DNA of 64,000 nucleotides from positions 14,118-78,117 of the forward strand of contig JBBRWS010000002.1 in the NCBI GenBank assembly GCA_038249055.1, in the 5' to 3' direction. The position numbers and the translations under genes were made by a program. The notes beneath the pieces are model-generated. The model ran no database searches and was not told where the DNA came from. It saw only the letters and a program-made list of their open reading frames with translations. Shown here piece after piece: positions 8,916 to 41,664 of the stretch. The first letter of the stretch is position 1. Every line of letters begins with the position of its first letter. This stretch comes from Minisyncoccia bacterium. Its GTDB lineage: Bacteria; Patescibacteriota; Minisyncoccia; Phycocordibacterales; UBA9973.

Positions 8916-9012
8916 TTGTAGAGGTTGTACCTCTCAATCAGTAGATTGACCTACTCGGTACGGGAGCCCAGTAGGTGATTGTACTCAATCAAGGTCCAAC
9001 CTCTACAATTTT
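8916..9012. repeat. composite palindromic repeat element (TTGTAGAGGTTGTACCTCTCAATCAGTAGATTGACC...GGTCCAACCTCTACAA)
   Basis: Member of a family seen at 12819, 16700, 20611, 27270, 31826, 36202 and 41616. Confidence 0.7.
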
Positions 9013-20610: not shown

Positions 20611-20668
20611 AAAAAAAATAGTAGAGGTTGGACGTCTTCCGTAGATGTACAACCTCTACTATTTTTTT
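20611..20668. terminator. repeat-family hairpin acting as a bidirectional terminator (A-run, TAGAGGTTGGACGTC..GTACAACCTCTA, T-run)
   Basis: Lies between convergent genes. Confidence 0.65.
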
Positions 20669-27062: not shown

Positions 27063-27504
27063 GATCTAATTTTAGTTTATTGAATTTTCTTTACCACTCT
27101 AAATAGGGGAACAAAGAAAATTCAATAAATTAAATTTAACCAAAATTTTAAAGAGCGCACTCCTTATATGATAGCATGTTTTGTGGTAAAAGTCAAGGGA
27201 GAGGTGGCGGGATATCTTCCTCTACGAATGCGGGAACCACGAGTACGTGTTCGGTCACTCATAATTTTCTGGTGAAAATTTGTGCGACCCTCAATCAGTA
27301 GATTGACCTCACGGGCGACTCGCACCGTCTTTCGATTCCCGCGGGACCGCGAGTACGCTTATCGAACACTACGTTTTCAGGTACTTTTCGATTTGGTTAA
27401 CACCAAATAGCGAAAAGTCTTTCGATTTCCGCACTCGAGCAAAGCAGTTTGCTCGCTCATCTCCACATATGAAAAAACATCCTGTAAAGGATGTTTTTTC
27501 ATAT

Positions 27505-27896
27505 GTGGAGATGGCGGGAATCGAACCCGCGTGCAAAGAGAACTCTTATAGAAATCTACATGTTTAGTATATCCAATTGGGTTTAAATGTTTATTCTAGA
27601 GGACATACAAGAAAAATAAACACCGAGCTTTTAATTGTCGGACTTTACATCAAGCGGTTGTAAAATCGTAACCAGATAAATTATGCCCACTCTTTATATC
27701 TGATGTCAAAAGAGTAGACACCCGCGAGGCCTAATTAGGCGAATGCGGGAGCAAAATTACCGAACCCAAAAGAGTAAGGTGATTTTACTGAAGCGACTTT
27801 GTTTGCACTTAGTCTTTTCCAAGAAGTTTTAAAAGATTCCTGAGTACTTTACATGCATATATAAGAGGATTCACCTTGTCGAAGCCGATCATCCCC
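27505..27896 (-). ncRNA. ssrA: tmRNA (SsrA)
   Basis: Minus-strand 5' end GGGGAUGAUCGGCUUCGACAAGG with a G3-U pair in the acceptor stem. 3' tRNA-like domain GCGGGUUCGAUUCCCGCCAUCUCCA. Candidate tag reading frame GCA AAC AAA GUC GCU UCA ... GCA UUC GCC UAA (ANKVASVKSPYSFGFGNFAPAFA). Adjacent to smpB. Confidence 0.8.
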
Positions 27897-27989: not shown

Positions 27990-28436
27990 TTAATTAATTT
28001 TATACTCTCTTCTTATTTCTCTATCAACATCTCGTTTTTTGATAGTTTCTCTTTTATCAAAAACTTTTTTTCCTCTTGCGACTGCGACAGATACTTTAAT
28101 ATAACGACCCTTACTATACAATGAAATAGGGATAAGAGTCAAACCTTTGATATCGTCCTTCTCTGCTAGCTTCTTGATTTCTTTTTTAGACAAAAGAAGT
28201 CTTCTATTTCTATCTGGGTCATACCCAGGGTTGGTGTTATTTTGTTGGTATGGAGGTATATGCATTCCTATAATAAATGCTTCTCCTCCACGAATAACGC
28301 AAAAGGCTGCGGTGATACTTCCTTGCCCTTTCTTTATTGATTTCACTTCAAATCCAGAAAGTTCGATACCTGCTTCAAAGGTTTCTTCTATACTGTAATT
28401 GAAATGTGCTTTTCTATTATCTATATATGTTGTCAC
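27990..28436 (-). CDS. smpB: SsrA-binding protein SmpB
   Basis: FNYSIEETFEAGIELSGFEVKS...RRLLLSKKEI. Sits immediately 5' of ssrA on the same strand. Confidence 0.9.
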   Translation of the reverse strand: MTTYIDNRKAHFNYSIEETFEAGIELSGFEVKSIKKGQGSITAAFCVIRGGEAFIIGMHIPPYQQNNTNPGYDPDRNRRLLLSKKEIKKLAEKDDIKGLTLIPISLYSKGRYIKVSVAVARGKKVFDKRETIKKRDVDREIRREYKIN

Positions 28437-29376: not shown

Positions 29377-31266
29377 ATGGATAATAATAAACAAGAAAAA
29401 AAGCCAATACAACCAAAAACACCAAACCTCATGAATCAAATCATGATAGCGATATTTATATTTATGTGTATTACAGTTGCTTATACATATTTATCAAAAT
29501 CACCAGAAGATATTAAAAATTTAACTATTTCAGATGTTGCAAAAGGTATTACCTCAGGAACAATTGAAAAGATAGAAGTCGCTGGAAGTGAAGTAAATGT
29601 TACTTTTAAAGATAAGACGATAGGTAAAGCAAAAAAAGAAGTGGAGAGCTCTTTGTCGGAAACTCTTTTTAATTACGGAGTAACACCAACAGAACTTTCA
29701 TCTGCTCCAATTGAGATTAAAAATGAATCTGGTATTTCATACTGGCTTTTAAACTTGTTGCCATTTCTTTTGCCTCTCATAATTATTGGATTTTTTGTGT
29801 GGATGCTGACTCGACAAGTTAAAGGTGCAGGAATGCAAGCATTTACTTTTGGACAATCAAAAGCACGAATCACAGACCCAAATGATAAAAATTCAAAAGT
29901 TACTTTTAAAGATGTTGCTGGTTCAAAAGAAGCAAAAGAAGAATTAAAAGAAATTGTAGACTTTCTAAAAAATCCTAAAAAGTTTTTGGATATTGGTGCT
30001 CGTATTCCGAAAGGAGTTATCTTGACTGGCGCTCCAGGAACAGGAAAAACTTTGCTTGCTCGTGCTGTAGCAGGGGAAGCATCAGTTCCATTTTTTCATT
30101 TATCAGGAAGTGAATTCGTGGAAATGTTTGTGGGAGTAGGAGCATCACGAGTTCGTGATTTATTTAAAATGGCTAAAAAAGCCGCACCATCAATAGTTTT
30201 TATTGATGAAATAGATGCAGTGGGGCGTGTTCGTGGCACTGGAGTTGGCGGAGGAAATGATGAACGTGAACAAACTCTAAACCAAATTCTAGTTGAAATG
30301 GATGGATTTGAACCAAATGAAAAAGTAATAGTTATGGCTGCAACAAATAGAGCAGATGTACTTGATCCAGCACTTCTTCGCCCTGGTCGTTTTGATCGAA
30401 AGATTATTTTGGATTTACCTGACAGATCAGACCGTGAAGAAATTCTTGTAATTCATTCAAAGAAAAAACCTTTTGCTGAAGATGTAGATTTGAAAGTTAT
30501 TGCAGAGAGAACACCAGGATTTTCTGGCGCAGATTTATATTCTCTTATGAATGAAGGGGCAATACTTGCAGCCCGTGAAGACAGAAAAAAGGTTGCACAG
30601 TTTGATTTGATACGCTCTATTGAAAAAGTAATGATGGGCCCAGAGAGAAAGAGTCATTTACTTTCAAAGAAAGAAAAAGAAATTACTGCATATCATGAAG
30701 CGGGGCATGCACTCATTGCATCAATACTTCCATACGCAGACCCAGTTCATAAAGTTTCAATTGTTTCTCGTGGGCGTGCAGGTGGTTACACGTTAAAACT
30801 TCCACTTGAAGAGAGAAGACTGCAAAGTAAAAAAGAATTTTTAGATGACATTACAATGTCTCTTGGAGGTTATGTTGCAGAAGAAATGGTTTTTGGAGAT
30901 ATTACTACAGGTCCATCAAATGACTTACAAGTTGCGACCAACTTAGCTCGCGCTATGGTTACGAGATGGGGAATGAGCACTGAGATAGGACCTATTGCAC
31001 TTGAGAGTGATGGCGGACATGTAATGTTTGGACAAGGTGTGAATGAAAAAGAATATTCTGAAAAAGTAAGTTCTCTTATTGATTCTGAAGTTTCAAAGAT
31101 TATGAATGGCTCATTTGCTGAAGCAAAGAAAATTCTTTTAGAGAAAAGAAATGTTCTTGATATAATTGCAAAGAAATTAATAGAAGTAGAAACCCTTGAG
31201 CAAGCTGAATACAATGCATTAATAATTGCCAATGGTATTTTACCGAAGAAGAAAGAAGTAGAATAA
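29377..31266 (+). CDS. ftsH: ATP-dependent zinc metalloprotease FtsH
   Basis: AAA+ Walker [18 protein letters not shown], Walker [10 protein letters not shown], and the zinc motif HEAGHAL. The true start may be an internal Met. Confidence 0.95.
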
Positions 31267-31464: not shown

Positions 31465-31538
31465 CCGCCCTTAGCTCAGTTGGTTAGAGCACAGAGCTTA
31501 TACCTCTGGGGTCCTAGGTTCGAATCCTAGAGGGCGGA
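31465..31538 (+). tRNA. tRNA-Ile (anticodon UAU)
   Basis: Folded manually. Acceptor CCGCCCU/AGGGCGG, D-arm GCUC..GAGC, anticodon stem CAGAG/CUCUG with loop CUUAUAC, T-arm CUAGG-UUCGAAU-CCUAG, discriminator A. Terminator CAGGGGTTACCCTG + T7 at 31544-31572. Confidence 0.8.
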
Positions 31539-31574
31539 CAATTAAAAAAATCAGGGGTTACCCTGGTTTTTTTA

Positions 31575-32000
31575 ATTGTCCGCCCTAGCAAGCAAACTAC
31601 TTTGCTTGCGTCTAGGATTCGAAGACCTTGAGCATGTATCATGAAATTTTAATTTCAGGATACGCGAAAGGTGTACAGAATCTGTAAGATTCGAAAAGCG
31701 TAATCGCGGTCCTAGAGGGCCAGAGCGTCTAGGATTCGAAAGACTTTTCATTATCAGCTTTGCTGATTGAAAAGTACCTGGCTACGTGGTAGCCGAAAAA
31801 TGTACTCATGGTCCTAGAGTATTATAAAAATAGAGGTTGGACGTCTCCCGTAGACGTACAACCTCTATTTTTATATGGTCCGCCCTAGCAAGCAAACTAC
31901 TTTGCTTGCGTCTAGGATTCGAAAACCTTTTCCTTGTGAGTGTACTCGCGAACGGAAAAGGTGTACTGGTCCAGTAAGGACCGAAAAGTGTACTCACGGT
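31575..32000. repeat. tRNA-Ile-adjacent repeat array: two copies of GTCCGCCCTAGCAAGCAAACTACTTTGCTTGCGTCTAGGATTCGAA plus GATTCGAAAGACTTTTC..GAAAAGT(G)TACTCAYGGTCCTAG modules
   Basis: Copies at 31575-31625 and 31868-31925. GGTCCTAGAG and GTCCGCCCT are inverted or partial copies of the tRNA 3' end (TCCTAGAGGGCGGAC). Confidence 0.7.
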
Positions 32001-32150
32001 CCTAGTGCATTTTATAAATTAGACTGCGAGGCGATTTAACCATTGACAATATGCATATAATTATGGTATAATAAAAATACAGTTTTATTACTTTGTATAT
32101 AAAGTATATAATCAAGGTAATTAAAAATTAATAATTAACTCATCTTATTT

Positions 32151-32468
32151 ATGAATGAAGAAACAAAAAATGGTTTAGATTTACAAATGTTTGTTGACCG
32201 TTTAGTTGAAGAGAAAAAATATCCAGCAAATTTAGAAAAGGAAGTTGTTGATCAGATAAAAAAAGATTTATTAAGCCAAGTAGAGGATGTAGTAAATATG
32301 GTTATCATTAGTAATCTCTCAGAAGAGAAGCTTGGAGAATTTAATGAATTACTAGATAAAGATATTTCAGATGCTGACATGCAAAAGTTTTGCTCAGATA
32401 GTATCCCTGGATTAGCTCAACTAATAGCAACAGAACTTATTGTTTTTAAACAAACATATCTTTCATAA
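32151..32468 (+). CDS. hypothetical small acidic protein
   Basis: 105 aa. Confidence 0.4.
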   Translation: MNEETKNGLDLQMFVDRLVEEKKYPANLEKEVVDQIKKDLLSQVEDVVNMVIISNLSEEKLGEFNELLDKDISDADMQKFCSDSIPGLAQLIATELIVFKQTYLS

Positions 32469-32501
32469 TTTTATTATTATTTATTAATTAAAATTTCAAA
32501 T

Positions 32502-35500
32502 ATGGATAATCCTCCTAAAAAAACTATAGATAACGAAAAGGACGAAAAGACCGATATGGTTGATACTGCTGATAAAACCGAGACATCAGTTAATACTGAA
32601 AAGACTGAAGACCAAATAAGAGAAGATATAAAAAAGAGTGCTTTAGAAAAAGCAAAAAAAACAGTTACAGTTGTAAATGTTGAAGAATTAGCCGAAAATG
32701 AAGCTCGTAAGGCTGCAGATGCAAACATGGCCGAGTCACATGGAAGCAAAAAAATTGGTTTTTTTAAAAAAATGTGGAAGCATACATTTTTTGATGAATA
32801 TTACAGACAAAAAGAAGTAAATAAAGTTCGTGAGGATATAAAAAATACAGGTAACATTTATACAGGAAGATTAGAAAATAAAGATAAAGTAGCTCACGAG
32901 ACTACAATGAAGGCGATTTCTGATCGCTTTACTTCCGAATATGAAGGGACACTTGCTGACGGAGAAGCTAAAAAAATGCTAGATGAAAAGGACCCAGAGA
33001 CTATACAAGCAAAAACTGACATAAAAAATTTACTTGATAGCTATGCTATGGGTAAAATAGATGATGAAGCTTTTAATACTGAAAAAAATAAAATTATAGG
33101 AGGTTTAAAGAAAGAAGATTTACTAGAAGGAGCAAATAATTATGCAGACAATCTTTTTGAGATTGCTCAAAATGCACGTCTAGCGGTAGAACACGGAGCA
33201 AAGATTGAAGAGTTAGAATACGACTTAGCGATTGTTGTAGGTAAAGCAAAAAGCAGTCTAAAAACAGAGGCTCATTTCAACTGGGTAGATCAAGGTATTG
33301 ATAAAATGAAAAAATCATACGTTGGTAGATTTATAAGCCCAGCCGTTCTATCTCTTGGTGTTGGTCTTGCTTATTCTATATCAGTTGGAGCAAGTAAAAA
33401 ATTAATGGCAAGTAAAGCAGCTGCATGGATATCACTAGGAGGTTCAGTTGCGATTTCTGCAGCATTTGCTGGAATGAACGAGAGTCAGCGTGTTGCACTT
33501 GAGAGAAAACAACATGGTATTGAAATGGCTGAAGGAGGTATTATTGAAGAAGGAGATAAACGTAGAGAGCAATTGGAAAAATATCAATATACAATGGAAA
33601 GTTCAAATGTTCTTGCTCAAAATTTGCGTGATTTAATGTTTGAAAAAGATAAAGATGGTAATGAAATAGTTAAAGATATTAAACCAGAAGATTTACAGAA
33701 AATCATGGCAAGTCTAAGTGAAATAGATGCACGTAAATCTCTTAACACAAGAAAGAAGATAGATCTTATTTCATATACAAATATTAGTAGTGTAGAAAAA
33801 GAAAGTACAGATCTTACTATTTTGACAGCCAGAGCTAAAGTGGAATTAAAGAAAAGACTTGATGGTGGTCTAAAAAGTGGATTACCAGAGGGTAAAGATT
33901 TTGATTCTTATTTGAAAGAACAAACTCAAACCATAGAAGATACTCTTCTTGGTGGTGAAAAAGGAATAAATTCTCATGATAAAGCTTTCAGAAGATACAA
34001 GGCAGGTCGTATTGCTAAAAAAATGGCACAAACTGCAGTCGCAGGTTTGATCATTGGAGGAACGATTCAAGAAGTATTTGCTTTCTTTAAAGATGATGTA
34101 CAGGGTCTTGCAGAAAGTATGTTCCATCAAGATGCTCATGCAACTATGCAGACACCCTTTGAAAGTATTAGAGGTTGGATTTTAGGCAATCCTTCTCATA
34201 TGGAAATGGGGAATGCGGTCCACGCTGTTTTCAATGGACATGATATAAATATTCCAGAAGGTACAAGTCTGGTTAATAATGCTGACGGAACTTTTGATTT
34301 ATTAAGAGGTGGTCATGTTGTAACAAGTCATTTTCTTCCAACATTTAATGCTGATGGTGGCTTAGATGCGGCTTCTGTTGCAAAATTAGGGCAAGATGGA
34401 ATTATTGCAACGGCTACTCATCAAATAATTGATTCTACAAAAGAAGTAACTGGTAATTCTCAAGAATGGTTATTGAATCATCCAGGAGAAACTATTAAAG
34501 TTGATCACAATGCATTTATGGATCAAAATACATCTATGACTCCCGACCAATTTCATCCTGGTCATTTAGTAGGAGCTGATGGTAATGAACCTCTTACTCA
34601 GTGGGGAGGTATAAATGGAACAGGTGTAAATGAAAATGGAGACACTGTAATGAATATTTCTCAAATGATAAAAGAGGGTTCATATCACGGAAATATTTCC
34701 GTGGATGTTCCAAAAGAATTAAATGATGGTAATTTGATGGCATTAATATTTCTTAATTCCACTCATGGTGCTGGTATACCAGTACCAATAGATGCAAGTG
34801 GAAATATTATTTTTGATCATAACAATCCGATAATGCAGCAAATATTTAGTCCTGGTCCTGATGGCCATATGGTGTCACATGCTAGAGTTATTGAAATTGT
34901 TCAAAAAATGGGGACAGATGCAAATGGAGTTGAGCATGTCCGTGCTCTTAGTGCTGTGGTTGGTGAAGGTCTAGATAAAATAAAAGATATTGTCCCTTCG
35001 CATCTTGATATTGCAATAAATAATTTAACTCCAACTCGAGGTACAGAAATGCCATTATTTGTCCCATTGGTTGCTCGCAGACCACTTGGAAAAATAATTT
35101 ATGGTCCAGATGGTAAACCAATTAAGCCAAGTCCTGAAGGTGACAAAGAGAAAAAATCTACTATTCAAACTGAAGGAGATAAAGATTTAAATACAATTCC
35201 AGGAGCTCCGATTGGAGGTGAAGAAAATAAAGATTTAAATACTGTAGCGGCTATTCCAGTAGGAGTAGGAGAGACAATTGAAAAACAAAAAACAATGAAT
35301 GAAATGAGCAAGGAGGAATACGACGCAATGTATGATGATTTAAAGATGATTAATTTGAGAATTCAATCAGCACAAGGAATTATTACCTTAGAAGAATCAG
35401 ATTTAAAATCCGCATACGGTAAAAAGAGATATATGGATTTAAAATCTATTGCTCCGGGTGTTCCTGTTCGTTTCAATAAAGATGAGCTAGAAATTATGGG

Positions 35501-36182
35501 TAAAGAAATTGAAGGTCTTTTAAGTAGTGCAAAAATAGTTGAAAAAGAAAAAGAGCTGACCGTAGAAGAAAAAGGAGGTATTAAATCAGACATAGAAATG
35601 TTAAATAAAGCGATTCAAAATTCACAAGGAATTATTGCTTTAAATGAGTCTTCATTTCAATCTGAATATGGAAAGAAAAGATATAGAGAACTTAAATCTA
35701 TTGCAGAAGGTAAGGGTATAACATTTAATAAAAATGAATTACCCCAAATAGCTACTGAAATGGAAGCCGTACTTCGAGGTCCCAGAAAAATAGAACAAAC
35801 AGAAGTTGTAAAAGCTCCAGAAGAAACTATTGTTGAAAAAGTAGTAGAACAAGCACCTTCAGAAAAAGTTGAAGAAAAAGTAGTAGAACAAACCGAAGTT
35901 AAAAAAGCTCCAGAGCAAGCACCTGCAGAAGAAGTTGCAAAAAATCTAGAAACAGAAAAATTATATAAGATTGAAGATTTATCAAAAATAGGAACAGTTT
36001 TTGAAGATAAAAACAATAGTTTTAAAGTTCTAGGGGTTACTAGTTTTTTAGGGATGAATAAAAAAATAAAAATTGAATACACTAATAAAATAACAGGAGA
36101 AAAGAAAACAGACTTCTATCCTAAGAAAGATTTAATAAAAGACTTTAATAATGGAGTTGTTAAGATAAAATCAGTAGAATAA
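32502..36182 (+). CDS. giant (1226 aa) hypothetical protein with central transmembrane segments, Glu/Lys-rich N-terminus, C-terminal ~60-aa tandem repeats and an EKVVEQ low-complexity tract
   Basis: Hydrophobic stretches (ISPAVLSLGVGLAYSISVGA, AAWISLGGSVAISAAFAG, AVAGLIIGGTIQEVFAFF). Repeats MINLRIQSAQGIITLEESDLKSAYGKKRYMDLKSIA / MLNKAIQNSQGIIALNESSFQSEYGKKRYRELKSIA. Confidence 0.6.
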   Translation: MDNPPKKTIDNEKDEKTDMVDTADKTETSVNTEKTEDQIREDIKKSALEKAKKTVTVVNVEELAENEARKAADANMAESHGSKKIGFFKKMWKHTFFDEYYRQKEVNKVREDIKNTGNIYTGRLENKDKVAHETTMKAISDRFTSEYEGTLADGEAKKMLDEKDPETIQAKTDIKNLLDSYAMGKIDDEAFNTEKNKIIGGLKKEDLLEGANNYADNLFEIAQNARLAVEHGAKIEELEYDLAIVVGKAKSSLKTEAHFNWVDQGIDKMKKSYVGRFISPAVLSLGVGLAYSISVGASKKLMASKAAAWISLGGSVAISAAFAGMNESQRVALERKQHGIEMAEGGIIEEGDKRREQLEKYQYTMESSNVLAQNLRDLMFEKDKDGNEIVKDIKPEDLQKIMASLSEIDARKSLNTRKKIDLISYTNISSVEKESTDLTILTARAKVELKKRLDGGLKSGLPEGKDFDSYLKEQTQTIEDTLLGGEKGINSHDKAFRRYKAGRIAKKMAQTAVAGLIIGGTIQEVFAFFKDDVQGLAESMFHQDAHATMQTPFESIRGWILGNPSHMEMGNAVHAVFNGHDINIPEGTSLVNNADGTFDLLRGGHVVTSHFLPTFNADGGLDAASVAKLGQDGIIATATHQIIDSTKEVTGNSQEWLLNHPGETIKVDHNAFMDQNTSMTPDQFHPGHLVGADGNEPLTQWGGINGTGVNENGDTVMNISQMIKEGSYHGNISVDVPKELNDGNLMALIFLNSTHGAGIPVPIDASGNIIFDHNNPIMQQIFSPGPDGHMVSHARVIEIVQKMGTDANGVEHVRALSAVVGEGLDKIKDIVPSHLDIAINNLTPTRGTEMPLFVPLVARRPLGKIIYGPDGKPIKPSPEGDKEKKSTIQTEGDKDLNTIPGAPIGGEENKDLNTVAAIPVGVGETIEKQKTMNEMSKEEYDAMYDDLKMINLRIQSAQGIITLEESDLKSAYGKKRYMDLKSIAPGVPVRFNKDELEIMGKEIEGLLSSAKIVEKEKELTVEEKGGIKSDIEMLNKAIQNSQGIIALNESSFQSEYGKKRYRELKSIAEGKGITFNKNELPQIATEMEAVLRGPRKIEQTEVVKAPEETIVEKVVEQAPSEKVEEKVVEQTEVKKAPEQAPAEEVAKNLETEKLYKIEDLSKIGTVFEDKNNSFKVLGVTSFLGMNKKIKIEYTNKITGEKKTDFYPKKDLIKDFNNGVVKIKSVE

Positions 36183-36201
36183 GAATAAATTAATAAAAAA
36201 T

Positions 36202-36274
36202 AAAAATAGAGGTTGGACGTCTCAATCAGTAAGTTGACTTACTGGGTAAGGGGGACGTACAACCTCTATTTTTG
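36202..36274. terminator. repeat-family hairpin/terminator (TAGAGGTTGGACGTC-TCAATCAGTAAGTTGACTTACTGGG-..GACGTACAACCTCTA) with flanking A/T runs
   Basis: Directly after the stop of the 1226-aa gene. Confidence 0.65.
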
Positions 36275-36336
36275 TTATCCAAATTATATTAATTGACAGT
36301 AAATATTGATTAAAGGTATCATGGGTATATAAATTA

Positions 36337-36498
36337 TGACACCACAAGAAAAAGCAAAAAAAATTGAAGAGATATATAACGAAGCTATTAAAAAGCTTGA
36401 AGAACTTAATAAGGAACGTAAAGGGATTGTAGTGAATTATATAAAAGAGCTTGAAGTTCAAAAAATAAATGCGATTCGGGCATCTATGGGATTATAAA
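36337..36498 (+). CDS. possible small protein (53 aa, MTPQEKAKKIEEIYNEAIKKLEEL...)
   Basis: Short ORF I found myself. It is below the track threshold and fills the gap before the 510-aa gene. Coordinates are within about 1 nt. Confidence 0.25.
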
Positions 36499-36512
36499 TT
36501 AATTAACTTATT

Positions 36513-38045
36513 ATGAAGGAACAGTTCAACGAAAAAGATTCTCTGCAAAAAGATATAGAAAGTCAGACAACAGCAGAAGGTATAAAAAGTTTTATAGATG
36601 ATACCGAGGCATGGGGTGGTCATGAAGATATAGTTCTGTTTGCTAAAAAAAAGCTCGAAGATATTTCATTGAAGGCTAATGCAGCAGAACAAACAAGTGA
36701 ATCTCATATTGTTCAAATAAATGAGATGGAGGGAAGTGTGGTAGCAGTAGCAGAAAGAACAAAAAATATTGATAAACAAATAGAAGAGGTTAAAGCAAAT
36801 GCAGCAGCAGAAATTGGAAAAGTTGAGGCTATTGGAGCTGAGATAGGAGAGAAAAGCCCAGAAATAATAATAGATAAAAGATTACAAGAATATACCGAAG
36901 GTAATATTATAAAATTTGCAGAAGAAGGAAGACCTTACAAAGTAACAAAAACAGCAGAAGATAAAGGTTCTTATTATTTAGCGGAAATAGAAGCTATTTT
37001 AGAACCAGGAGAAGATTCTAAACACAAAGATCATAATTTTGTTGAATTAGAGAAAACAGAAAATGGATCAATTGGGAAAATACTTGCAAGACCTGATTAC
37101 TTATATAAACCTAGAGAAACACAAAAAGTAGAAGGAGAAAAAAATGCAGGAGAAGTAATAGAAAATAATATAAATAATAATGTTGCAGAACCAGAGAAGG
37201 TAGCAGAAGTTCAAAATGAAACAACTGCTGAGTCTGTTGTAGCTCCAGAGACTAAAGTTGAAAGCCCTGTTGTTTCAAAACCAGAAGCTGGACCAGAAAA
37301 AGTAATTAGTAAAGGGGAAGAAAGGTATAATAAAATTTCAGATACAATAACTACTCAAAAGAATAAATTTACAGGTTGGATAAGTAGAGGAACTGAAGGT
37401 CTTGGAAAATTTATTAAAAAGGGATTAATAGGAGCTTTGGAAGCACCAGAAGATATAACTCATGGTGTAAAAGTTGTTGGAAATAAAATAGTAGAAGAAT
37501 CAGGCTATATAAAAGATAGCATTGTAGCAGGAGCTACCATTGTTGGTAAAACAACAGTTGAAGGATTTAAATCTATGGGAAATGATTATAATAAATTTGA
37601 TAAATATAGAGGTGAAAAAGTTGAACAAATAGGAGAATGGGTAGGATTCAGTGCAGCTCAGGCTTATGAGTCAAGTTCAAATTGGATAAAAGAAAAGAAA
37701 ACAAAAACAGAAAATATTATTAATGGAGTTTCTCTTGCTACAGAAACAGTTTATGAATTAGCAAAAGATAAATCGATTGAAAAATTGGAGAATACAAGAG
37801 ATAGCATTAAAAAATCTTTAAAAGAACTTAAAAAACATGGTGAAAGCGCATTGGATACAGCTCGATTATGGGCTTGGTATAAAAAAGATGACTACAATAA
37901 AAAGAAGAATGCTATAAAAGAAGCATATCTTAAAAAGAAAGGAGAAATAGAATATAGTAAAATGCAGAAAATATTAGAAAAAAATGCTCAATTAAATCAA
38001 ATTGGGAAGAAAGGAGAAAAACTAGAATATAAAATAGCCGCATAA
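36513..38045 (+). CDS. hypothetical 510-aa Lys/Glu-rich, predicted coiled-coil protein
   Basis: Long ORF, no motif. Confidence 0.5.
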   Translation: MKEQFNEKDSLQKDIESQTTAEGIKSFIDDTEAWGGHEDIVLFAKKKLEDISLKANAAEQTSESHIVQINEMEGSVVAVAERTKNIDKQIEEVKANAAAEIGKVEAIGAEIGEKSPEIIIDKRLQEYTEGNIIKFAEEGRPYKVTKTAEDKGSYYLAEIEAILEPGEDSKHKDHNFVELEKTENGSIGKILARPDYLYKPRETQKVEGEKNAGEVIENNINNNVAEPEKVAEVQNETTAESVVAPETKVESPVVSKPEAGPEKVISKGEERYNKISDTITTQKNKFTGWISRGTEGLGKFIKKGLIGALEAPEDITHGVKVVGNKIVEESGYIKDSIVAGATIVGKTTVEGFKSMGNDYNKFDKYRGEKVEQIGEWVGFSAAQAYESSSNWIKEKKTKTENIINGVSLATETVYELAKDKSIEKLENTRDSIKKSLKELKKHGESALDTARLWAWYKKDDYNKKKNAIKEAYLKKKGEIEYSKMQKILEKNAQLNQIGKKGEKLEYKIAA

Positions 38046-38049
38046 TATT

Positions 38050-38409
38050 ATGAATATACAAGAACTAAAAGATTTTTTTATAGCTAGTGAATATTCTGAT
38101 GAGACAAAGAAAATAATAGCTGCTATTTTATCTGACAAAGTAGAAGCAACCCCCGAGATGATTTTTCAAATCAAGGAAATATTACAAAATGAACTCGATG
38201 CTGATTTTAAAGAAGCAGGAGTTGATATAACAGGTGATCCTGAAGCAGAAATAATTGAAAAAGAGTATGCAGAGGAATTGGATTTGATAGAAAAAGATTT
38301 AAATAGTGATATGGAATTTGTAGAGAAGGAATTAAATGAGTTAGATGAACTAAATACAAAAGTACAAGAAATTTCAGATGAAATGGAGGCAGGAGAAATA
38401 AAAAAATAA
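38050..38409 (+). CDS. hypothetical small highly acidic protein
   Basis: 119 aa, about 30% Asp/Glu. Confidence 0.4.
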   Translation: MNIQELKDFFIASEYSDETKKIIAAILSDKVEATPEMIFQIKEILQNELDADFKEAGVDITGDPEAEIIEKEYAEELDLIEKDLNSDMEFVEKELNELDELNTKVQEISDEMEAGEIKK

Positions 38410-38420
38410 ATATAAAATTT

Positions 38421-38453
38421 AAAAGCGCCCCGATGAAAGTCGGGGCGCTTTTA
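38421..38453. terminator. bidirectional terminator (AAAAGCGCCCCGA..TCGGGGCGCTTTT)
   Basis: Sits between the convergent 38050 gene and recG. Confidence 0.75.
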
Positions 38454-38458
38454 AATTA

Positions 38459-40693
38459 TTATTCAAAATGAAGTTTAATATTTTTACTTATAAGTGTTTT
38501 AGCTAAAAGAGGGGATAGTTTTAAATCAATATCATTTTGTATTATTGCTATTGCCTCTGTTCGTGCAGCTTCTACCATTTTTATATTTTTCATTGCTTCC
38601 ATCCCAAGATCAGTGATACCCCATTGTTTATCACCACCGAGAAGTCCAGCTCCACGAAGAGATAAATCTAGTTCAGCAAGTTCAAAACCATTAGCTGCTT
38701 TAGTTAGAGCTTTCAATCTGTCTATTGTTTTATCAGTTTTAGCATCAGCAAAGAGGTAACAATAAGATTGATAAGTAGAGCGTATAACTCTACCACGAAG
38801 TTGATGGAGTTGAGCAAGGCCAAATCTTTCTGCTCCCTCTATTATAATAACAGTTGAATTTGGAATATTTACTCCTACCTCTATTACGGAGGTAGAAACT
38901 AATATATCAACTTTATGCTCAGCAAATTCTCTCATTACCTGCTCTTTTTTTTGCTTAGTCATTTTGCTATGCATTATATCAATACGATAATCTTGGAACA
39001 CTTCTTTCTTTAATCTTTTTGCTTCACTGGTTACCGATTTTACATCGAGTTTTATTTTGTCTTCTTCATCTGTTGTCTCATCTATTTTAGGACAGATTAT
39101 ATATAATTGTCTTCCTGCCCCTAGTTCTTTTTTAATCTTTTCATAAGCATCCAATCTTTTATTTTCACCAACTATTTCAGTAATAACTTCTTTTCTCCCT
39201 TCGGGCATTTGGTCAATTATAGATAAATCTAAATCCCCATAAATAGTAAGCGCGAGAGTTCGTGGGATAGGTGTAGCAGTCATAGATAAATAGTGAGGGG
39301 AGTGACCTTCTTTCTTAGCCAGTTTCATTCTCTGGTTGGTTCCAAATCGGTGTTGTTCATCTATCACCACAAGTCCTAAATCTTCAAATTCTACAGACTT
39401 TGATATTAAAGAATGAGTACCAATAACTATTGGTATTTCGCCGTTTTTAATCCATTTGAGAAGTTGGTTTTTTGCTATAGGGGTCCAAGTTTTAATTTGT
39501 TCTCCATCTTTCCATCCTCCTGATTTACTTGGAAATTTACGGCAACCAGAAGAAGTAATAAGGGCAATTGAAATACCTGTGTGTTCAAAATATTTAGTAA
39601 AGTTTTCAAAAAGCTGAGTAGCTAAAACTTCTGTTGGTGCCATATAGGCAACTTGTAAATTGCCAAAAGATTGACCAATTGGTCTATTTTTAATAACAGC
39701 ATATGCAATAGTTGCTGCAACAAATGTTTTACCACTTCCTACATCTCCTTCAACTAAACGCGACATTGGTTTATCCTTTTTTAAATCTTCAAGAATAGTA
39801 TGTATTGTAGATGTTTGAGCAGGAGTTGGTTTGAAAGGAAATCTAGAAACGAAATCTTTAATATCACTATCTTTAACAATAAGTTTATATGAAAAAAGTT
39901 CCTCATATTTTTTACGTTCTTGTTGGCGAGCAAGTTGTATAAAAAATACTTCTTCGAAGGCAAATCTTTTTCGAGCAATCTCTGCGTGTTCTTTCTTTTG
40001 GGGGGAGTGTATCCAAACAAGAGCAGTATGTAGAGAGGGTAATTTGTATTTATTTAAAATTTCTTTGTCTAAATAATCTGGAATATTTTTAATACAATCT
40101 GACTTTAGAATTTTTTTGATTGCATGGTACATCCATTTTGAAGTAATACCTTTTGATTCTGGATAAATTGGATAACCATATTGGCTACCCCCTTCCGCTT
40201 TTTGAAAAAGTGAATCATGTAAATCAATTGGAAGAATATCCTCTTTATTTATTTCAGGGTTTGTAAGTGTTAGTCCATATGTTTTACTTTCTGAAACTTT
40301 ACCAGTAACACGAACCGTGGAACCTTCTTTTAGCATTTTTGCTAAGTATGGTTGATGAAACCAAACAATATTTATCTTTCCAGTAAGATCAGTGATAGTA
40401 GCTTGACCCATAGGAATTTTACTTTTAAAACCTTTTTTTGTTTGTAATTTAGATATGATTCCTATAATTGTAACTTGTTCACCGTCTTGTAAAGTATTTA
40501 TATAGCGGAACTCACTTATGTCTGTATATCGAGAGGGAAAATAATATAAAAGATCTCGAACCTCCATTATTCCAAGTCGAGTTAATGCCTTTTTTTGATT
40601 TATATCTATTCTAAATTGAGATTCTATTTTATCAGTTAATAACATAATCAAGAGGAGAAAAATTATTTTTTGTTTTATCTCCGTAAAGAACAA
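38459..40693 (-). CDS. recG: ATP-dependent DNA helicase RecG
   Basis: Wedge-domain N-terminus, Walker A GDVGSGKT, DEQHRFG, TATPIPRTLAL and QLRGRVIR motifs. The true start is probably an internal Met. Confidence 0.9.
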   Translation of the reverse strand: MFFTEIKQKIIFLLLIMLLTDKIESQFRIDINQKKALTRLGIMEVRDLLYYFPSRYTDISEFRYINTLQDGEQVTIIGIISKLQTKKGFKSKIPMGQATITDLTGKINIVWFHQPYLAKMLKEGSTVRVTGKVSESKTYGLTLTNPEINKEDILPIDLHDSLFQKAEGGSQYGYPIYPESKGITSKWMYHAIKKILKSDCIKNIPDYLDKEILNKYKLPSLHTALVWIHSPQKKEHAEIARKRFAFEEVFFIQLARQQERKKYEELFSYKLIVKDSDIKDFVSRFPFKPTPAQTSTIHTILEDLKKDKPMSRLVEGDVGSGKTFVAATIAYAVIKNRPIGQSFGNLQVAYMAPTEVLATQLFENFTKYFEHTGISIALITSSGCRKFPSKSGGWKDGEQIKTWTPIAKNQLLKWIKNGEIPIVIGTHSLISKSVEFEDLGLVVIDEQHRFGTNQRMKLAKKEGHSPHYLSMTATPIPRTLALTIYGDLDLSIIDQMPEGRKEVITEIVGENKRLDAYEKIKKELGAGRQLYIICPKIDETTDEEDKIKLDVKSVTSEAKRLKKEVFQDYRIDIMHSKMTKQKKEQVMREFAEHKVDILVSTSVIEVGVNIPNSTVIIIEGAERFGLAQLHQLRGRVIRSTYQSYCYLFADAKTDKTIDRLKALTKAANGFELAELDLSLRGAGLLGGDKQWGITDLGMEAMKNIKMVEAARTEAIAIIQNDIDLKLSPLLAKTLISKNIKLHFE

Positions 40694-40790
40694 TACCGCC
40701 TATAGCTATAAATATAATTAGTAAAATTATAGTTCTTGTTTTACTTAATTCTTTTTTCATGTAAATATTATATCAGAATATTTTATATTG

Positions 40791-40879
40791 CGGAGACGGC
40801 GAGATTCGAACTCGCGAGGGGGTTTGAAGCCCCTGCCTCTTTAGCAAAGAGGTACGTTAGACCACTCTGACACGTCTCC
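40791..40879 (-). tRNA. tRNA-Ser (anticodon GCU), type II
   Basis: Minus strand GGAGACG..anticodon stem CCUCU/AGAGG with loop UUGCUAA, a long variable arm, T-arm GCGAG-UUCGAAU-CUCGC, discriminator G. Confidence 0.8.
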
Positions 40880-41110: not shown

Positions 41111-41196
41111 GGAGGCGTGGATGAGTGGCTTAAATCAACGGTTTACTAAACCGTCGTCCCCTTAAAGGACCGTGAGTTCGAATCTCACCGCCTCCG
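41111..41196 (+). tRNA. type-II tRNA, Ser-like (G73, long variable arm) with atypical anticodon loop UUACUAA (formal anticodon ACU)
   Basis: Acceptor GGAGGCG/CGCCUCC, 3-bp D-stem, anticodon stem ACGGU/ACCGU, variable hairpin GUCC-CCUUAAA-GGAC, T-arm GUGAG-UUCGAAU-CUCAC. Confidence 0.65.
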
Positions 41197-41229
41197 CATG
41201 TTGAAAAAATTGCCCTTTTATGGGGCATT

Positions 41230-41615: not shown

Positions 41616-41664
41616 AAAAATAGAGGTTGTACGTCTACGGGAGACGTCCAACCTCTATTTTTAT
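41616..41664. terminator. repeat-family hairpin/terminator, inverse orientation (TAGAGGTTGTACGTC..GACGTCCAACCTCTA)
   Basis: Downstream of the minus-strand gene 41673..42179. Its orientation is flipped relative to the copies after plus-strand genes. Confidence 0.65.

Follow-up and report, generated by a model that had tools for sequence, protein, structure and literature searches.

The stretch of DNA that was analysed (the window, 64,000 nucleotides) contains, downstream of a tRNA-Ile gene (anticodon TAT, 31465-31539) and the repeats after it, five co-oriented and adjacent open reading frames whose coordinates and lengths of 105, 1226, 53, 510 and 119 amino acids (p105, p1226, p53, p510 and p119) were confirmed. 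The initial annotation had read these as five genes with no recognisable homology, possibly forming a surface or host-attachment apparatus or a secreted effector system, and the locus raises the question of which of the genes belong together and what they may do. The features of the locus were as follows, p105 and p1226 being listed with their best family assignments.

31822..31878, no strand: terminator-like palindromic hairpin with A-run and T-run flanks, closing the tRNA-Ile/repeat region upstream
32043..32072, plus strand: predicted sigma-70-type promoter of the p105-p1226 operon (TTGACA, 18-nt spacer, TATAAT, extended -10 TG)
32151..32468, plus strand: p105, 105 aa, Pfam DUF5663 (PF18908; 26.0 bits against a gathering score of 23.7)
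32502..36182, plus strand: p1226, large protein of an unnamed Patescibacteria-wide family (104 matches, E down to 0)
36196..36282, no strand: likely p105-p1226 terminator, a strong palindromic hairpin with A-run and T-run (-40.6 kcal/mol, z = -9.2)
36293..36322, plus strand: predicted second sigma-70-type promoter, 5' of p53 (TTGACA, 18-nt spacer, TATCAT)
36336..38409, plus strand: operon of p53 (36336-36497), p510 (36513-38045) and p119 (38050-38409), separated by 15 and 4 nt
38410..38465, no strand: bidirectional terminator hairpin in the gap between p119 and the convergent RecG gene (-31 kcal/mol, z = -8.5)

The five reading frames are two transcription units and not a single system. Unit 1 (32043-36282) opened with a perfect sigma-70-type promoter, continued through p105 and p1226, and closed with a strong hairpin terminator. 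Its promoter agreed with the consensus at 12 of 12 positions and was the sole perfect site in the scanned region, and the promoter 5' of p53 agreed at 11 of 12, both being consensus matches only. The hairpins at 31822-31878 (fold energy -29.5 kcal/mol, z = -8.0) and 36196-36282 belonged to one element family, and the motif ATAGAGGTTG[GT]ACG formed five inverted pairs in the window, where chance alone would give 0.9 matches.

The genes p53, p510 and p119 are a separate, lineage-restricted operon with its own promoter and terminator and lie outside the conserved module. Among all loci read they were found only in the window and in the sister loci L005/L006; none of the three had a match in the family libraries searched, and p510 had two matches among 5.8 billion proteins, one of them non-self. 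The trio was not matched to the large protein, because p53, p510 and p119 were 92%, 63% and 85% identical between the window and L005 despite a large protein that was 27% identical. The trio showed no similarity to any tail of the p1226 family. These genes are an unrelated insertion common only to the window and its sister genome. A single apparatus or effector system built from all five genes is very improbable: their co-orientation and adjacency, and the identical order in L005/L006, speak for it, but the trio is separately promoted and terminated, with the strong hairpin lying between it and p1226, and was missing from all other loci read. The proposed role of p510 as a putative coiled-coil partner of p1226 was likewise without support. 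The high Asp/Glu content noted for p119 was borne out at 30.3%.

The remaining two genes have relatives. A lack of recognisable homology was a fair description of the near-orphans p53, p510 and p119 and was wrong for p105, because it is a DUF5663 protein, and for p1226, which had hundreds of homologues. A DUF5663 HMM built from 71 neighbour genes matched p105 at E = 8.6e-37. In the representative library the p1226 family fell into about 1360 clusters at 50% identity, and it included members from Paceibacteria, Moranbacteria, Kaiserbacteria and Saccharibacteria, while the loci read for the large gene spanned Paceibacterota, Nomura-, Kaiser-, Moran- and Komeilibacteria and true Saccharibacteria. 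No match to p1226 was found in Pfam, NCBIfam, PHROGs, PADLOC or PDB sequences, and no homology to a known housekeeping complex emerged.

The search for homologues and their neighbourhoods, which the initial annotation had proposed, covered 71 informative genome loci and 9 informative metagenome loci, and in every one of these 80 a DUF5663 gene adjoined the large gene. It usually lay 1-40 nt 5' of the large gene, the gap being at most 42 nt in most loci, and the order was inverted, with the large gene first, in three (L009, L019 and L052). Throughout Patescibacteria, the ultrasmall CPR bacteria, the DUF5663 gene and the large gene form an obligate pair, as a rule with translational coupling. 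No other conserved neighbour of the pair was observed across the loci read, the large gene was seen as a single copy per locus, and the pair sat among housekeeping genes, namely FtsH and RecG, S1 (the upstream neighbour in Saccharibacteria loci), or between the EF-G and EF-Tu genes. No mention of this strict pairing was found in the literature searched for DUF5663 or PF18908.

The p105 protein had no signal peptide and was acidic as noted initially (21% D+E, net charge -11). Southlakia epibionticum encodes a DUF5663 protein whose structure matches those of the trigger-factor C-terminal domain and of Spy-like LTXXQ proteins (Wang et al. 2023, PMC10633639, Table S2). SEML1_0162 and SEML1_0163 of that organism are DUF5663 proteins within the core Patescibacteria-enriched families, and SEML1_0162 is essential by Tn-seq (Wang et al. 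2023, PMC10633639). The idea of a small acidic, chaperone-like partner is plausible for p105, as a chaperone or adaptor.

The p1226 protein was divided into a conserved core and a tail, with the following segments.

32607..33329, plus strand: mostly helical, charged N-terminal domain, first part (residues 36-276; pLDDT ~90, column identity 0.60)
33330..33476, plus strand: hydrophobic helices 1 and 2 (residues 277-325; Kyte-Doolittle 1.71 and 1.47, family mean 1.4-1.6)
33477..34016, plus strand: helical domain, second part (residues 326-505; invariant R355, D421, L422 and F496)
34017..34088, plus strand: hydrophobic helix 3 (residues 506-529; G515xxxG519 and a near-invariant Gln523-Glu524)
34134..35096, plus strand: beta-rich domain (residues 545-865; pLDDT 80-94; invariant T551, E696, M722 and E798)
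35052..35087, plus strand: junction motif P..F(I/V)P...R.PL(E/G) (residues 851-862; P851, P855, R859 and L862 at least 90% conserved)
35277..35774, plus strand: two tandem alpha/beta repeats, the 'YGKKRY' module (residues 926-1091; pLDDT ~90)
35784..35951, plus strand: Glu/Lys/Val/Pro-rich linker, predicted to be disordered (residues 1095-1150; pLDDT <50)
35970..36179, plus strand: small C-terminal beta-barrel, SH3/KOW-type-like (residues 1157-1226; pLDDT ~95)

The core (residues ~50-865) was modelled by AlphaFold2 with a pLDDT of 86 and a pTM of 0.65, and the fold had no Foldseek match in PDB or BFVD at E <= 0.001. Residues 36-276 are cytoplasmic and without a signal peptide, a signal-like N-terminus being present in 0 of 334 family members. 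The expectation of three or four hydrophobic helices resolved into three family-conserved ones at 277-295, 307-325 and 511-529. Helices 1 and 2, modelled at 280-297 and 305-343, were rich in Gly, Ala and Ser and were separated by a short Lys-rich loop. The domain that follows (326-505) was strongly positive at both ends, with K+R of 5.1 and 5.5 in the 15-residue flanks of the helices, which places it in the cytoplasm by the positive-inside rule. Helix 3 was marked by its glycines and its Gln-Glu pair (G515 in 88/90, G519 in 90/90, Q523 in 89/90 and E524 in 89/90 sequences), and the Saccharibacteria alignment kept an equivalent SQE motif. The beta-rich domain was rich in Gly, Asn, Ser, Thr and His, with 9% K+R+E against 29% in the N-terminal domain. 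This composition is typical of exported domains and also fits beta-rich folds in general.

Past the junction motif the C-terminal tails diverged and were shuffled between members and lineages. Of 505 pairs whose cores were at least 60% identical, 176 had unrelated tails when measured from the junction column. The two tandem repeats reported initially in p1226 were real (alignment score 184 against 39 +/- 6 for shuffled sequence), with a length of about 80 residues each (926-1007 and 1013-1091) rather than about 60, and the EKVVEQ stretch (~1095-1150) taken to be the end of the protein was followed by the modelled barrel of about 70 residues. The best Foldseek matches of this barrel were EF-P domain I and the eIF5A N-terminal domain, which were not significant (E = 0.04, probability 0.93). 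No enzymatic domain was recognisable in the p1226 tail by Pfam or Foldseek. The 'YGKKRY' module occurred in 44 of 336 family proteins and was N-terminal in five, all without a signal peptide. Elsewhere in the family, 74 of 336 proteins carried a GT2-like motif (Pfam GT2, E = 1.7e-10), eight a C-terminal Pkinase domain (P0231, P0093, P0228, P0306, P0295, P0224, P0269 and one by motif scan only) and two a DnaJ domain, which exceeded the gathering score in P0276. GT9, DUF362 and a calpain-like domain occurred in one member each, and all six of these module types were C-terminal without an additional hydrophobic segment. One family member carried a YkuD L,D-transpeptidase tail.

Shuffled tails behind a conserved junction, enzymatic in some members, and a small helical partner gene directly upstream are features that recall a classical polymorphic toxin (CdiA, Rhs or LXG-like), in which a delivery region would carry a variable C-terminal toxin with an immunity gene and DUF5663 would be the secretion chaperone. 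We regard this as highly unlikely, as no conserved downstream small gene varied with tail type across the loci read, no LXG, PAAR, Rhs or TPS domain was found and PADLOC gave no match. The pair is moreover syntenic with housekeeping genes (FtsH/RecG, S1, EF-G/EF-Tu), many lineages have stably inherited the GT2 tail, and the window's own tail has no recognisable enzymatic domain.

The core diverged faster than the flanking genes in every comparison. Between L005 and the window, FtsH and RecG were 95% and 93% identical while DUF5663 was 39% and the large protein 27% identical. The DUF5663 gene and the large gene are co-inherited and replaceable as a unit, the pair having been swapped in L005 relative to the window. 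In L014, identity to the window was 74% in the N-terminal part, 71% in the beta-rich domain and 35% in the tail, with RecG at 92%. Fast evolution and the unit swap of the pair fit something at a variable interface. Fast divergence and allelic replacement are commoner in exposed or conflict proteins than in internal scaffolds.

The orientation of p1226 in the membrane was read in opposite directions by two lines of evidence, the charge bias giving the C-terminus out and the tail content giving it in. Three segments and the positive-inside rule (K+R of 5.5 before helix 3 against 2.1 after) place the N-terminus inside and the C-terminus outside, and therefore the beta-rich domain and tail outside. 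The long extracytoplasmic region proposed initially agrees with this bias and is rendered doubtful by the GT2, kinase, J-domain, GT9 and DUF362 tails and by the repeat module at signal-less N-termini. A YkuD tail is normally extracytoplasmic and counts against the cytoplasmic reading.

If the charge bias is followed, the same two-gene module would display its beta-rich domain and swappable tail on the surface, facing the host or envelope, a possibility that we take seriously and consider doubtful. The p1226 protein could then be an attachment protein, or a carrier handing its C-terminal module (GT2, kinase, J-domain, protease or L,D-transpeptidase) to the host in a manner resembling contact-dependent delivery proteins, with DUF5663 keeping the hydrophobic helices soluble before insertion. 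The three helices, the N-to-C rise in divergence relative to L014, the replacement of the pair as a cassette in a sister genome, the mosaic tails past the junction motif, a tail repertoire (YkuD included) like effector cargo, and the Pro/Glu/Lys-rich linkers all favour this arrangement. The S. epibionticum genes SEML1_0161-0162, a possible orthologue region, are also essential in co-culture (PMC10633639). However, the cofactors that GT2, kinase and J-domain modules require are cytoplasmic. Within clades these modules show vertical conservation and not a patchy distribution, and the 'YGKKRY' module lies at a signal-less N-terminus in five members. No signal peptide, sortase/LPXTG-type anchor or conserved nearby secretion-system or immunity-like gene was found, and only one copy was seen per locus.

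Our best guess, a tentative one that falls somewhat short of probable, is that the functional unit is p105 with p1226 and that it forms a membrane-tethered, modular platform that faces the cytoplasm and has a dedicated chaperone or adaptor. DUF5663 would be a cytosolic chaperone or adaptor synthesised just ahead of the large protein and putatively binding it. The three helices would tether p1226 to the cytoplasmic membrane with most of the protein, tail included, on the cytoplasmic side. The core may then act as a platform that places lineage-specific tail modules at the membrane, these being putatively of a binding type here (two alpha/beta repeats and an SH3-like barrel) and a GT2 glycosyltransferase, Ser/Thr kinase or J-domain elsewhere. 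The exceptional divergence and cassette replacement suggest that the platform engages a quickly changing partner, for example host-derived or phage-derived factors.

The locus can be compared with several known systems. SEML1_0161 is a hypothetical protein of 767 aa that is essential and matched nothing in Pfam or by Foldseek, encoded downstream of S1 and followed after 13 nt by two DUF5663 genes (Wang et al. 2023, PMC10633639). SEML1_0161-0163 share the upstream S1 with the Saccharibacteria loci and the large gene-then-DUF5663 order with L009, L019 and L052, although SEML1_0161, a putative relative of p1226, is the shorter protein and is not flagged as a core family member in the table of PMC10633639. 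The p105 protein, above the gathering threshold, belongs with Pfam DUF5663, a Patescibacteria-enriched family of small proteins without an assigned function.

Eag (DUF1795) chaperones accompany prePAAR effectors of type VI secretion, and Lap chaperones accompany LXG toxins of type VII secretion. In these systems a small dedicated partner gene lies directly 5' of the gene for a large protein, whose hydrophobic helices are of the Gly-zipper type and whose C-terminal domain varies past a conserved junction. The p105-p1226 pair is alike in its upstream partner gene, Gly-zipper-type helices and variable tail past a junction. It differs in having no sequence or domain relation to these systems and no T6SS, T7SS or immunity genes found with it, in the position of the p1226 helices within the middle of a core of ~860 aa, and in its housekeeping synteny and wide spread in the phylum.

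DjlA-type J-proteins and GtrB or DPM1-like GT2 enzymes are anchored or tethered to the membrane. They have no counterpart of the conserved core, and p1226 has neither a J-domain nor a GT2 domain. Some members of the family end in a J-domain or GT2 domain and are putatively tethered by hydrophobic helices, which is consistent with a cytoplasm-facing, membrane-anchored arrangement.

The five open reading frames reported in the initial annotation were confirmed at their coordinates, all on the + strand, and the finding is real, with its boundaries and part of its description corrected here. They are bounded by FtsH and a tRNA-Ile gene on one side and by a RecG-like gene on the far flank, as follows.

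29377-31266, FtsH gene
31465-31539, tRNA-Ile(TAT), between FtsH and p105
32043-32072, predicted promoter 5' of p105, a perfect consensus match (TTGACA-18-TATAAT)
32151-32468, + strand, p105 (ORF call)
32502-36182, + strand, p1226 (ORF call)
36196-36282, predicted terminator hairpin with A-run and T-run, 3' of p1226 (-40.6 kcal/mol, z = -9.2)
36293-36322, predicted promoter 5' of p53, consensus match (TTGACA-18-TATCAT)
36336-36497, + strand, p53 (ORF call)
36513-38045, + strand, p510 (ORF call)
38050-38409, + strand, p119 (ORF call)
38416-38457, predicted bidirectional terminator between p119 and RecG, from fold energy
38459-40693, RecG-like gene, convergent with p53, p510 and p119

The promoters are consensus predictions and the hairpins are energy predictions. 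Genes p105 and p1226 lie in the same reading frame with a gap of 33 nt, while the gaps within the downstream trio (p53, p510 and p119) are 15 and 4 nt, and the five ORFs are predicted to be two operons rather than one system. The acidic composition previously noted was borne out, p105 having 21% D+E and a net charge of -11 and p119 having 30.3% D+E.

Several other features of the window were recorded. Five intergenic palindromes (8918-9006, 20621-20659, 31830-31868, 36206-36269 and 41620-41658) share the arm ATAGAGGTTG[G/T]ACG with an A-run and a T-run at the flanks (10 matches to the arm where 0.9 would be expected), have fold energies of -29 to -41 kcal/mol, and look like a common REP-like element or bidirectional terminator; L005, a locus of a sister genome, has the element too. 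The tRNA-Ile, in the region 31465-32030, has the unusual anticodon TAT. Downstream of it are two perfect direct repeats of 36 nt (31588-31623 and 31888-31923); ahead of each stands GGTCCGCCCTA, similar to degenerate tRNA 3' halves. In the homologous loci L001 and L005, FtsH and DUF5663 are separated by an ORF of 262-263 aa, and L005 also retains the tRNA-Ile with similar repeats; the repeats and this ORF may be remnants of integration events at the tRNA. Divergent tRNA-Ser genes (40790-40879 on the - strand and 41111-41197 on the + strand) are separated by about 230 nt and have modest Rfam scores of 45 and 55 bits; one has the anticodon ACT (ARAGORN), and bacterial tRNAs seldom carry A at position 34. 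A tmRNA (27503-27896, 127 bits) adjoins a 148-aa GTG-start ORF on the same strand (27990-28436), for which its position makes SmpB the probable identity, SmpB being the neighbour in the loci L001 and L002; this is ordinary housekeeping context.

All five genes had been described as lacking recognizable homology. Searches of Pfam, NCBIfam, PHROGs and PADLOC with the five proteins matched only p105, which belongs to Pfam DUF5663 (PF18908; 26.0 bits against a gathering threshold of 23.7, profile positions 3-82 of 84). Among the PADLOC-DB defence models there was no match for p105, p1226, p53 or p510, and only a chance-level match of p119 to DpdC (E = 0.015). No paralogy was found among the five proteins. 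The p1226 product has 104 strong homologues in a collection of 5.8 billion proteins, many at E = 0 and all labelled hypothetical, so the earlier description does not hold for this gene either. The best match, P0003, is 70% identical over 72% of the query with no match near 100%, and P0001 is 60% identical over the full length; the exact p510 sequence is present in the collection (P0105), and it may be that the public record of this genome lacks a call for the large gene or splits it. Among 1.84 billion representatives, a profile search returned 1360 clusters at E ≤ 1e-3, 953 of them at E ≤ 1e-30, and p1226 itself scores 1499 bits against the family HMM. Core columns (residues ~50-865) include 22 that are invariant among 36 sequences and 14 among 90. 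Titles of loci from species-representative genomes include Paceibacterota, Nomura-, Kaiser-, Moran- and Komeilibacteria and true Saccharibacteria, the last with Nanosyncoccus and ruminant-gut lineages, whose members align with p1226 mainly over residues ~60-540 at 21-27% identity. A sequence-profile search of the PDB with the family alignment returned nothing at E ≤ 1. The literature searched on DUF5663, PF18908 and CPR novel folds contained nothing about the pair and did not mention DUF5663 or PF18908.

The two upstream genes form an obligate, co-inherited and co-replaceable pair. When the ORFs of 73 loci were scanned with HMMs for the two families, the large gene had an adjoining DUF5663 gene in 71, the two others being large genes cut by a contig end. 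DUF5663 was upstream in 68 loci, with a gap of no more than 42 nt or an overlap in 62 of these, and immediately downstream in three (L009, L019 and L052). Twelve further metagenome loci gave 9/9 informative cases with adjacent genes and a 1-nt gap, bringing the informative total to 80/80. There was no fusion of DUF5663 to the large protein among 336 family proteins, and clustering of all neighbouring genes revealed no other conserved neighbour: RecG and FtsH flank the pair in relatives of the window, in Saccharibacteria its neighbours are S1 and an AMP-binding enzyme, and in one lineage it has the EF-G gene on one side and the EF-Tu gene on the other, ahead of the S10 ribosomal-protein operon.

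Comparison with the sister genome indicates that the pair is exchanged as a unit. In L005 the FtsH and RecG genes are 95% and 93% identical to those of the window, while identity falls to 39% for DUF5663, 28% for the N part of the core and 29% for the beta-rich domain, with no alignment of the tail; the whole large protein (pair at L005 4045-7713, against 32151-36182 in the window) is 27% identical. This divergence equals that of pairs from genomes whose RecG is only ~60% identical, and the L005 large protein is closest to another subfamily (P0266, 76%), which together point to replacement of the pair as a unit at a fixed site. L005 thus shows allelic replacement of the whole operon at a fixed chromosomal position. 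A graded picture is given by the locus L014, which does not include FtsH and has identities of 92% for RecG, 82% for DUF5663, 74% for the N part of the core, 71% for the beta-rich domain and 35% for the tail. The core outpaced the flanks in divergence in all of 265 locus pairs, for example 44-75% identical cores alongside flanks at 85-93%. The large protein is the fastest-diverging gene in an otherwise housekeeping neighbourhood.

The trio was found only in the window and in L005/L006 of the sister genome. Its L005 products are 92% (p53), 63% (p510) and 85% (p119) identical to those of the window and lie beside the replaced pair, and the trio is therefore not matched to the large-protein allele. 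This, the restricted distribution, and the predicted terminator and second promoter that split p1226 from the trio argue against the five genes, adjacent and on one strand, acting as a single apparatus, which we regard as highly improbable. The possibility that the trio represents displaced tail cassettes of the large family was ruled out by comparison with the family tails. The p510 gene is fast-evolving, at 63% identity to its only homologue where flanking genes are ~94% identical; its ends (1-60 and 260-510) are conserved and its middle (~100-260) is variable, including a Pro-, Glu-, Val- and Thr-rich segment of low complexity.

The p1226 protein contains hydrophobic segments at 277-295, 307-325 and 511-529, in agreement with the hydrophobic helices initially described, and the three are conserved across the family. 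In an AlphaFold2 model that was built on an alignment of 90 sequences and covers residues 1-870 (pLDDT 86.2, pTM 0.65), the protein is mostly helical from 36 to 530, with hydrophobic helices placed at 280-297, 305-343 and 489-529, and beta-rich from 545 to 867. Helix 3 carries G515xxxG519 and a near-invariant Q523-E524, each in 89/90 sequences, and its SQE motif is also kept in Saccharibacteria. The core is closed by a junction motif, P..F(I/V)P...R.PL(E/G), at residues 851-862. The modelled core matched nothing in the two structure libraries searched with Foldseek (PDB and BFVD, E ≤ 0.001). The tail model (866-1226; pLDDT 72.8 overall, ~90-95 in the folded parts) consists of two alpha/beta repeats and a beta-barrel, the repeat pair and the barrel each preceded by a disordered linker, and gave nothing significant against the PDB; the best Foldseek matches of the barrel, to EF-P domain I and the eIF5A N-terminal domain (SH3/KOW-type), were likewise not significant (E = 0.04, probability 0.93). 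The two tandem repeats exist as proposed (926-1007 and 1013-1091; alignment score 184 against 39 +/- 6 in shuffles), but are ~80 rather than ~60 aa long, and the protein does not end in EKVVEQ-type low complexity, since the Glu/Lys/Val/Pro-rich stretch at ~1095-1150 is followed by a folded domain of ~70 aa.

Extra domains in longer family members are all C-terminal. A divergent GT2/GT-A domain with the motif [SN][NC]DAD was found in 74/336 sequences (Pfam GT2 E = 1.7e-10; Glyco_tranf_2_3 E = 3.1e-9); this GT2 domain with its DXD motif is absent from p1226 by Pfam and occurs only in the tails of other members. Eight members have a Ser/Thr kinase domain at the C-terminal end, mostly after the GT2 motif, two have DnaJ (P0276 at 33.3 bits against a gathering score of 27.8), and GT9, DUF362, a calpain-like domain and YkuD are each present in one. 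Measured from the junction column, tails were unrelated in 176 of the 505 pairs whose cores share 60% identity or more, including p1226 and P0003 (cores 71% identical), and conversely were at least 40% identical in 1540 pairs with cores below 40%. The p1226 repeat module was found in 44/336 members. In five of these (P0022, P0027, P0029, P0045 and P0056) it is at the extreme N-terminus (residues ~10-165), so that both ends of the core can accept the module.

The side of the membrane on which the tail lies was considered from these data. An odd count of three hydrophobic helices, the K+R values (5.1 following helix 2, dropping from 5.5 to 2.1 across helix 3) and the YkuD tail of one member are consistent with the N-terminus in and the C-terminus out, so that the beta-rich domain and tail would face the host. 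However, GT2, GT9, kinase, J-domain and DUF362 tails require cytoplasmic cofactors, there is no further hydrophobic segment between the beta-rich domain and those tails, and the tail module is also N-terminal in some members while a signal-like N-terminus was seen in 0/334. The three helices are also equally hydrophobic whether or not a member carries GT2, which speaks for the cytoplasmic arrangement. The K+R+E content is 9% in the beta-rich domain and 29% in the N-terminal domain, but composition was discarded as a topology indicator, since helical and beta-rich folds show this difference in any case. On balance a cytoplasmic C-terminus is slightly favoured, the external orientation being almost as probable.

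A lead on essentiality comes from Southlakia epibionticum, for which Tn-seq results are tabulated by Wang et al. 2023 (PMC10633639). In these tables SEML1_0161 is a 767-aa hypothetical protein without Pfam or Foldseek match (GD/ES/ES), SEML1_0162, 13 nt after it, is an essential DUF5663 protein of a core Patescibacteria-enriched family, and the next gene, SEML1_0163, is also DUF5663 (NE/GD/GD) with structural matches to the trigger-factor C-terminal domain, DUF2059 and LTXXQ/Spy-like chaperones (PMC10633639). The supplementary tables place SEML1_0161-0163 downstream of S1 and IF-2; the tables list no AMP-binding gene in this genome, and the third DUF5663 entry of Table S2 was not located (PMC10633639). 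Synteny and gene order suggest that SEML1_0161-0163 are the same module as the window pair. Neither a profile search with Saccharibacteria members nor a metagenome scan returned a protein identifiable as SEML1_0161, and the essentiality link of the large family is a putative lead only.

We tentatively prefer, at somewhat below an even chance, a membrane platform facing the cytoplasm, in which the large protein would be tethered via its three helices, DUF5663 would serve as a cytosolic chaperone or adaptor, and the core would place lineage-specific modules at the membrane. Only a little less likely is the main rival, in which the module is unchanged but exposes its beta-rich domain and tail to the host outside the cell. 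Alternatively, the pair could be a new host-directed device in which a dedicated chaperone loads a membrane-inserting carrier, whose conserved three-helix and beta-rich core presents swappable C-terminal cargo to the host cell or moves it into or onto that cell: binding modules here and a glycosyltransferase, kinase, J-domain, protease or L,D-transpeptidase elsewhere. Cassette replacement would reflect adaptation to different hosts. Taken jointly with its being Patescibacteria-wide and essential for the episymbiotic lifestyle, such a device is unlikely.

Patescibacteria account for much of bacterial diversity, and the majority of the genes particular to their lineages lack an assigned function. 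The pair spans distant classes of the group, with kinase, glycosyltransferase and J-domain modules in other lineages, and is exchangeable as a cassette between near-identical genomes. In the one genome-wide screen carried out on a cultivated Saccharibacterium, a DUF5663 member is essential according to the tabulated Tn-seq data. The pair is a concrete two-gene target for Southlakia or TM7x that bears on membrane organisation or the host interface.

The large protein differs from Gram-positive adhesins and S-layer proteins in that p1226 has no Sec signal, its first hydrophobic segment being at 277, and a simple hydropathy test, rather than SignalP, gave no signal-like N-terminus in any of 334 family members. 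It also carries no LPXTG/sortase signal, SLH, LysM or other wall anchor in Pfam and NCBIfam, and its C-terminus is modelled as a soluble beta-barrel in place of the adhesins' TM segment and positive tail. A variable C-terminal domain after a conserved junction (851-862) is shared with CdiA, Rhs and LXG toxins. However, TPS/FHA, PAAR/Rhs and LXG domains are absent from p1226 and from 36 + 28 members by Pfam, a convergent RecG or an AMP-binding enzyme lies downstream instead of a conserved immunity gene, and the trio in the window is not allele-matched; a classical toxin-immunity locus is accordingly very improbable.
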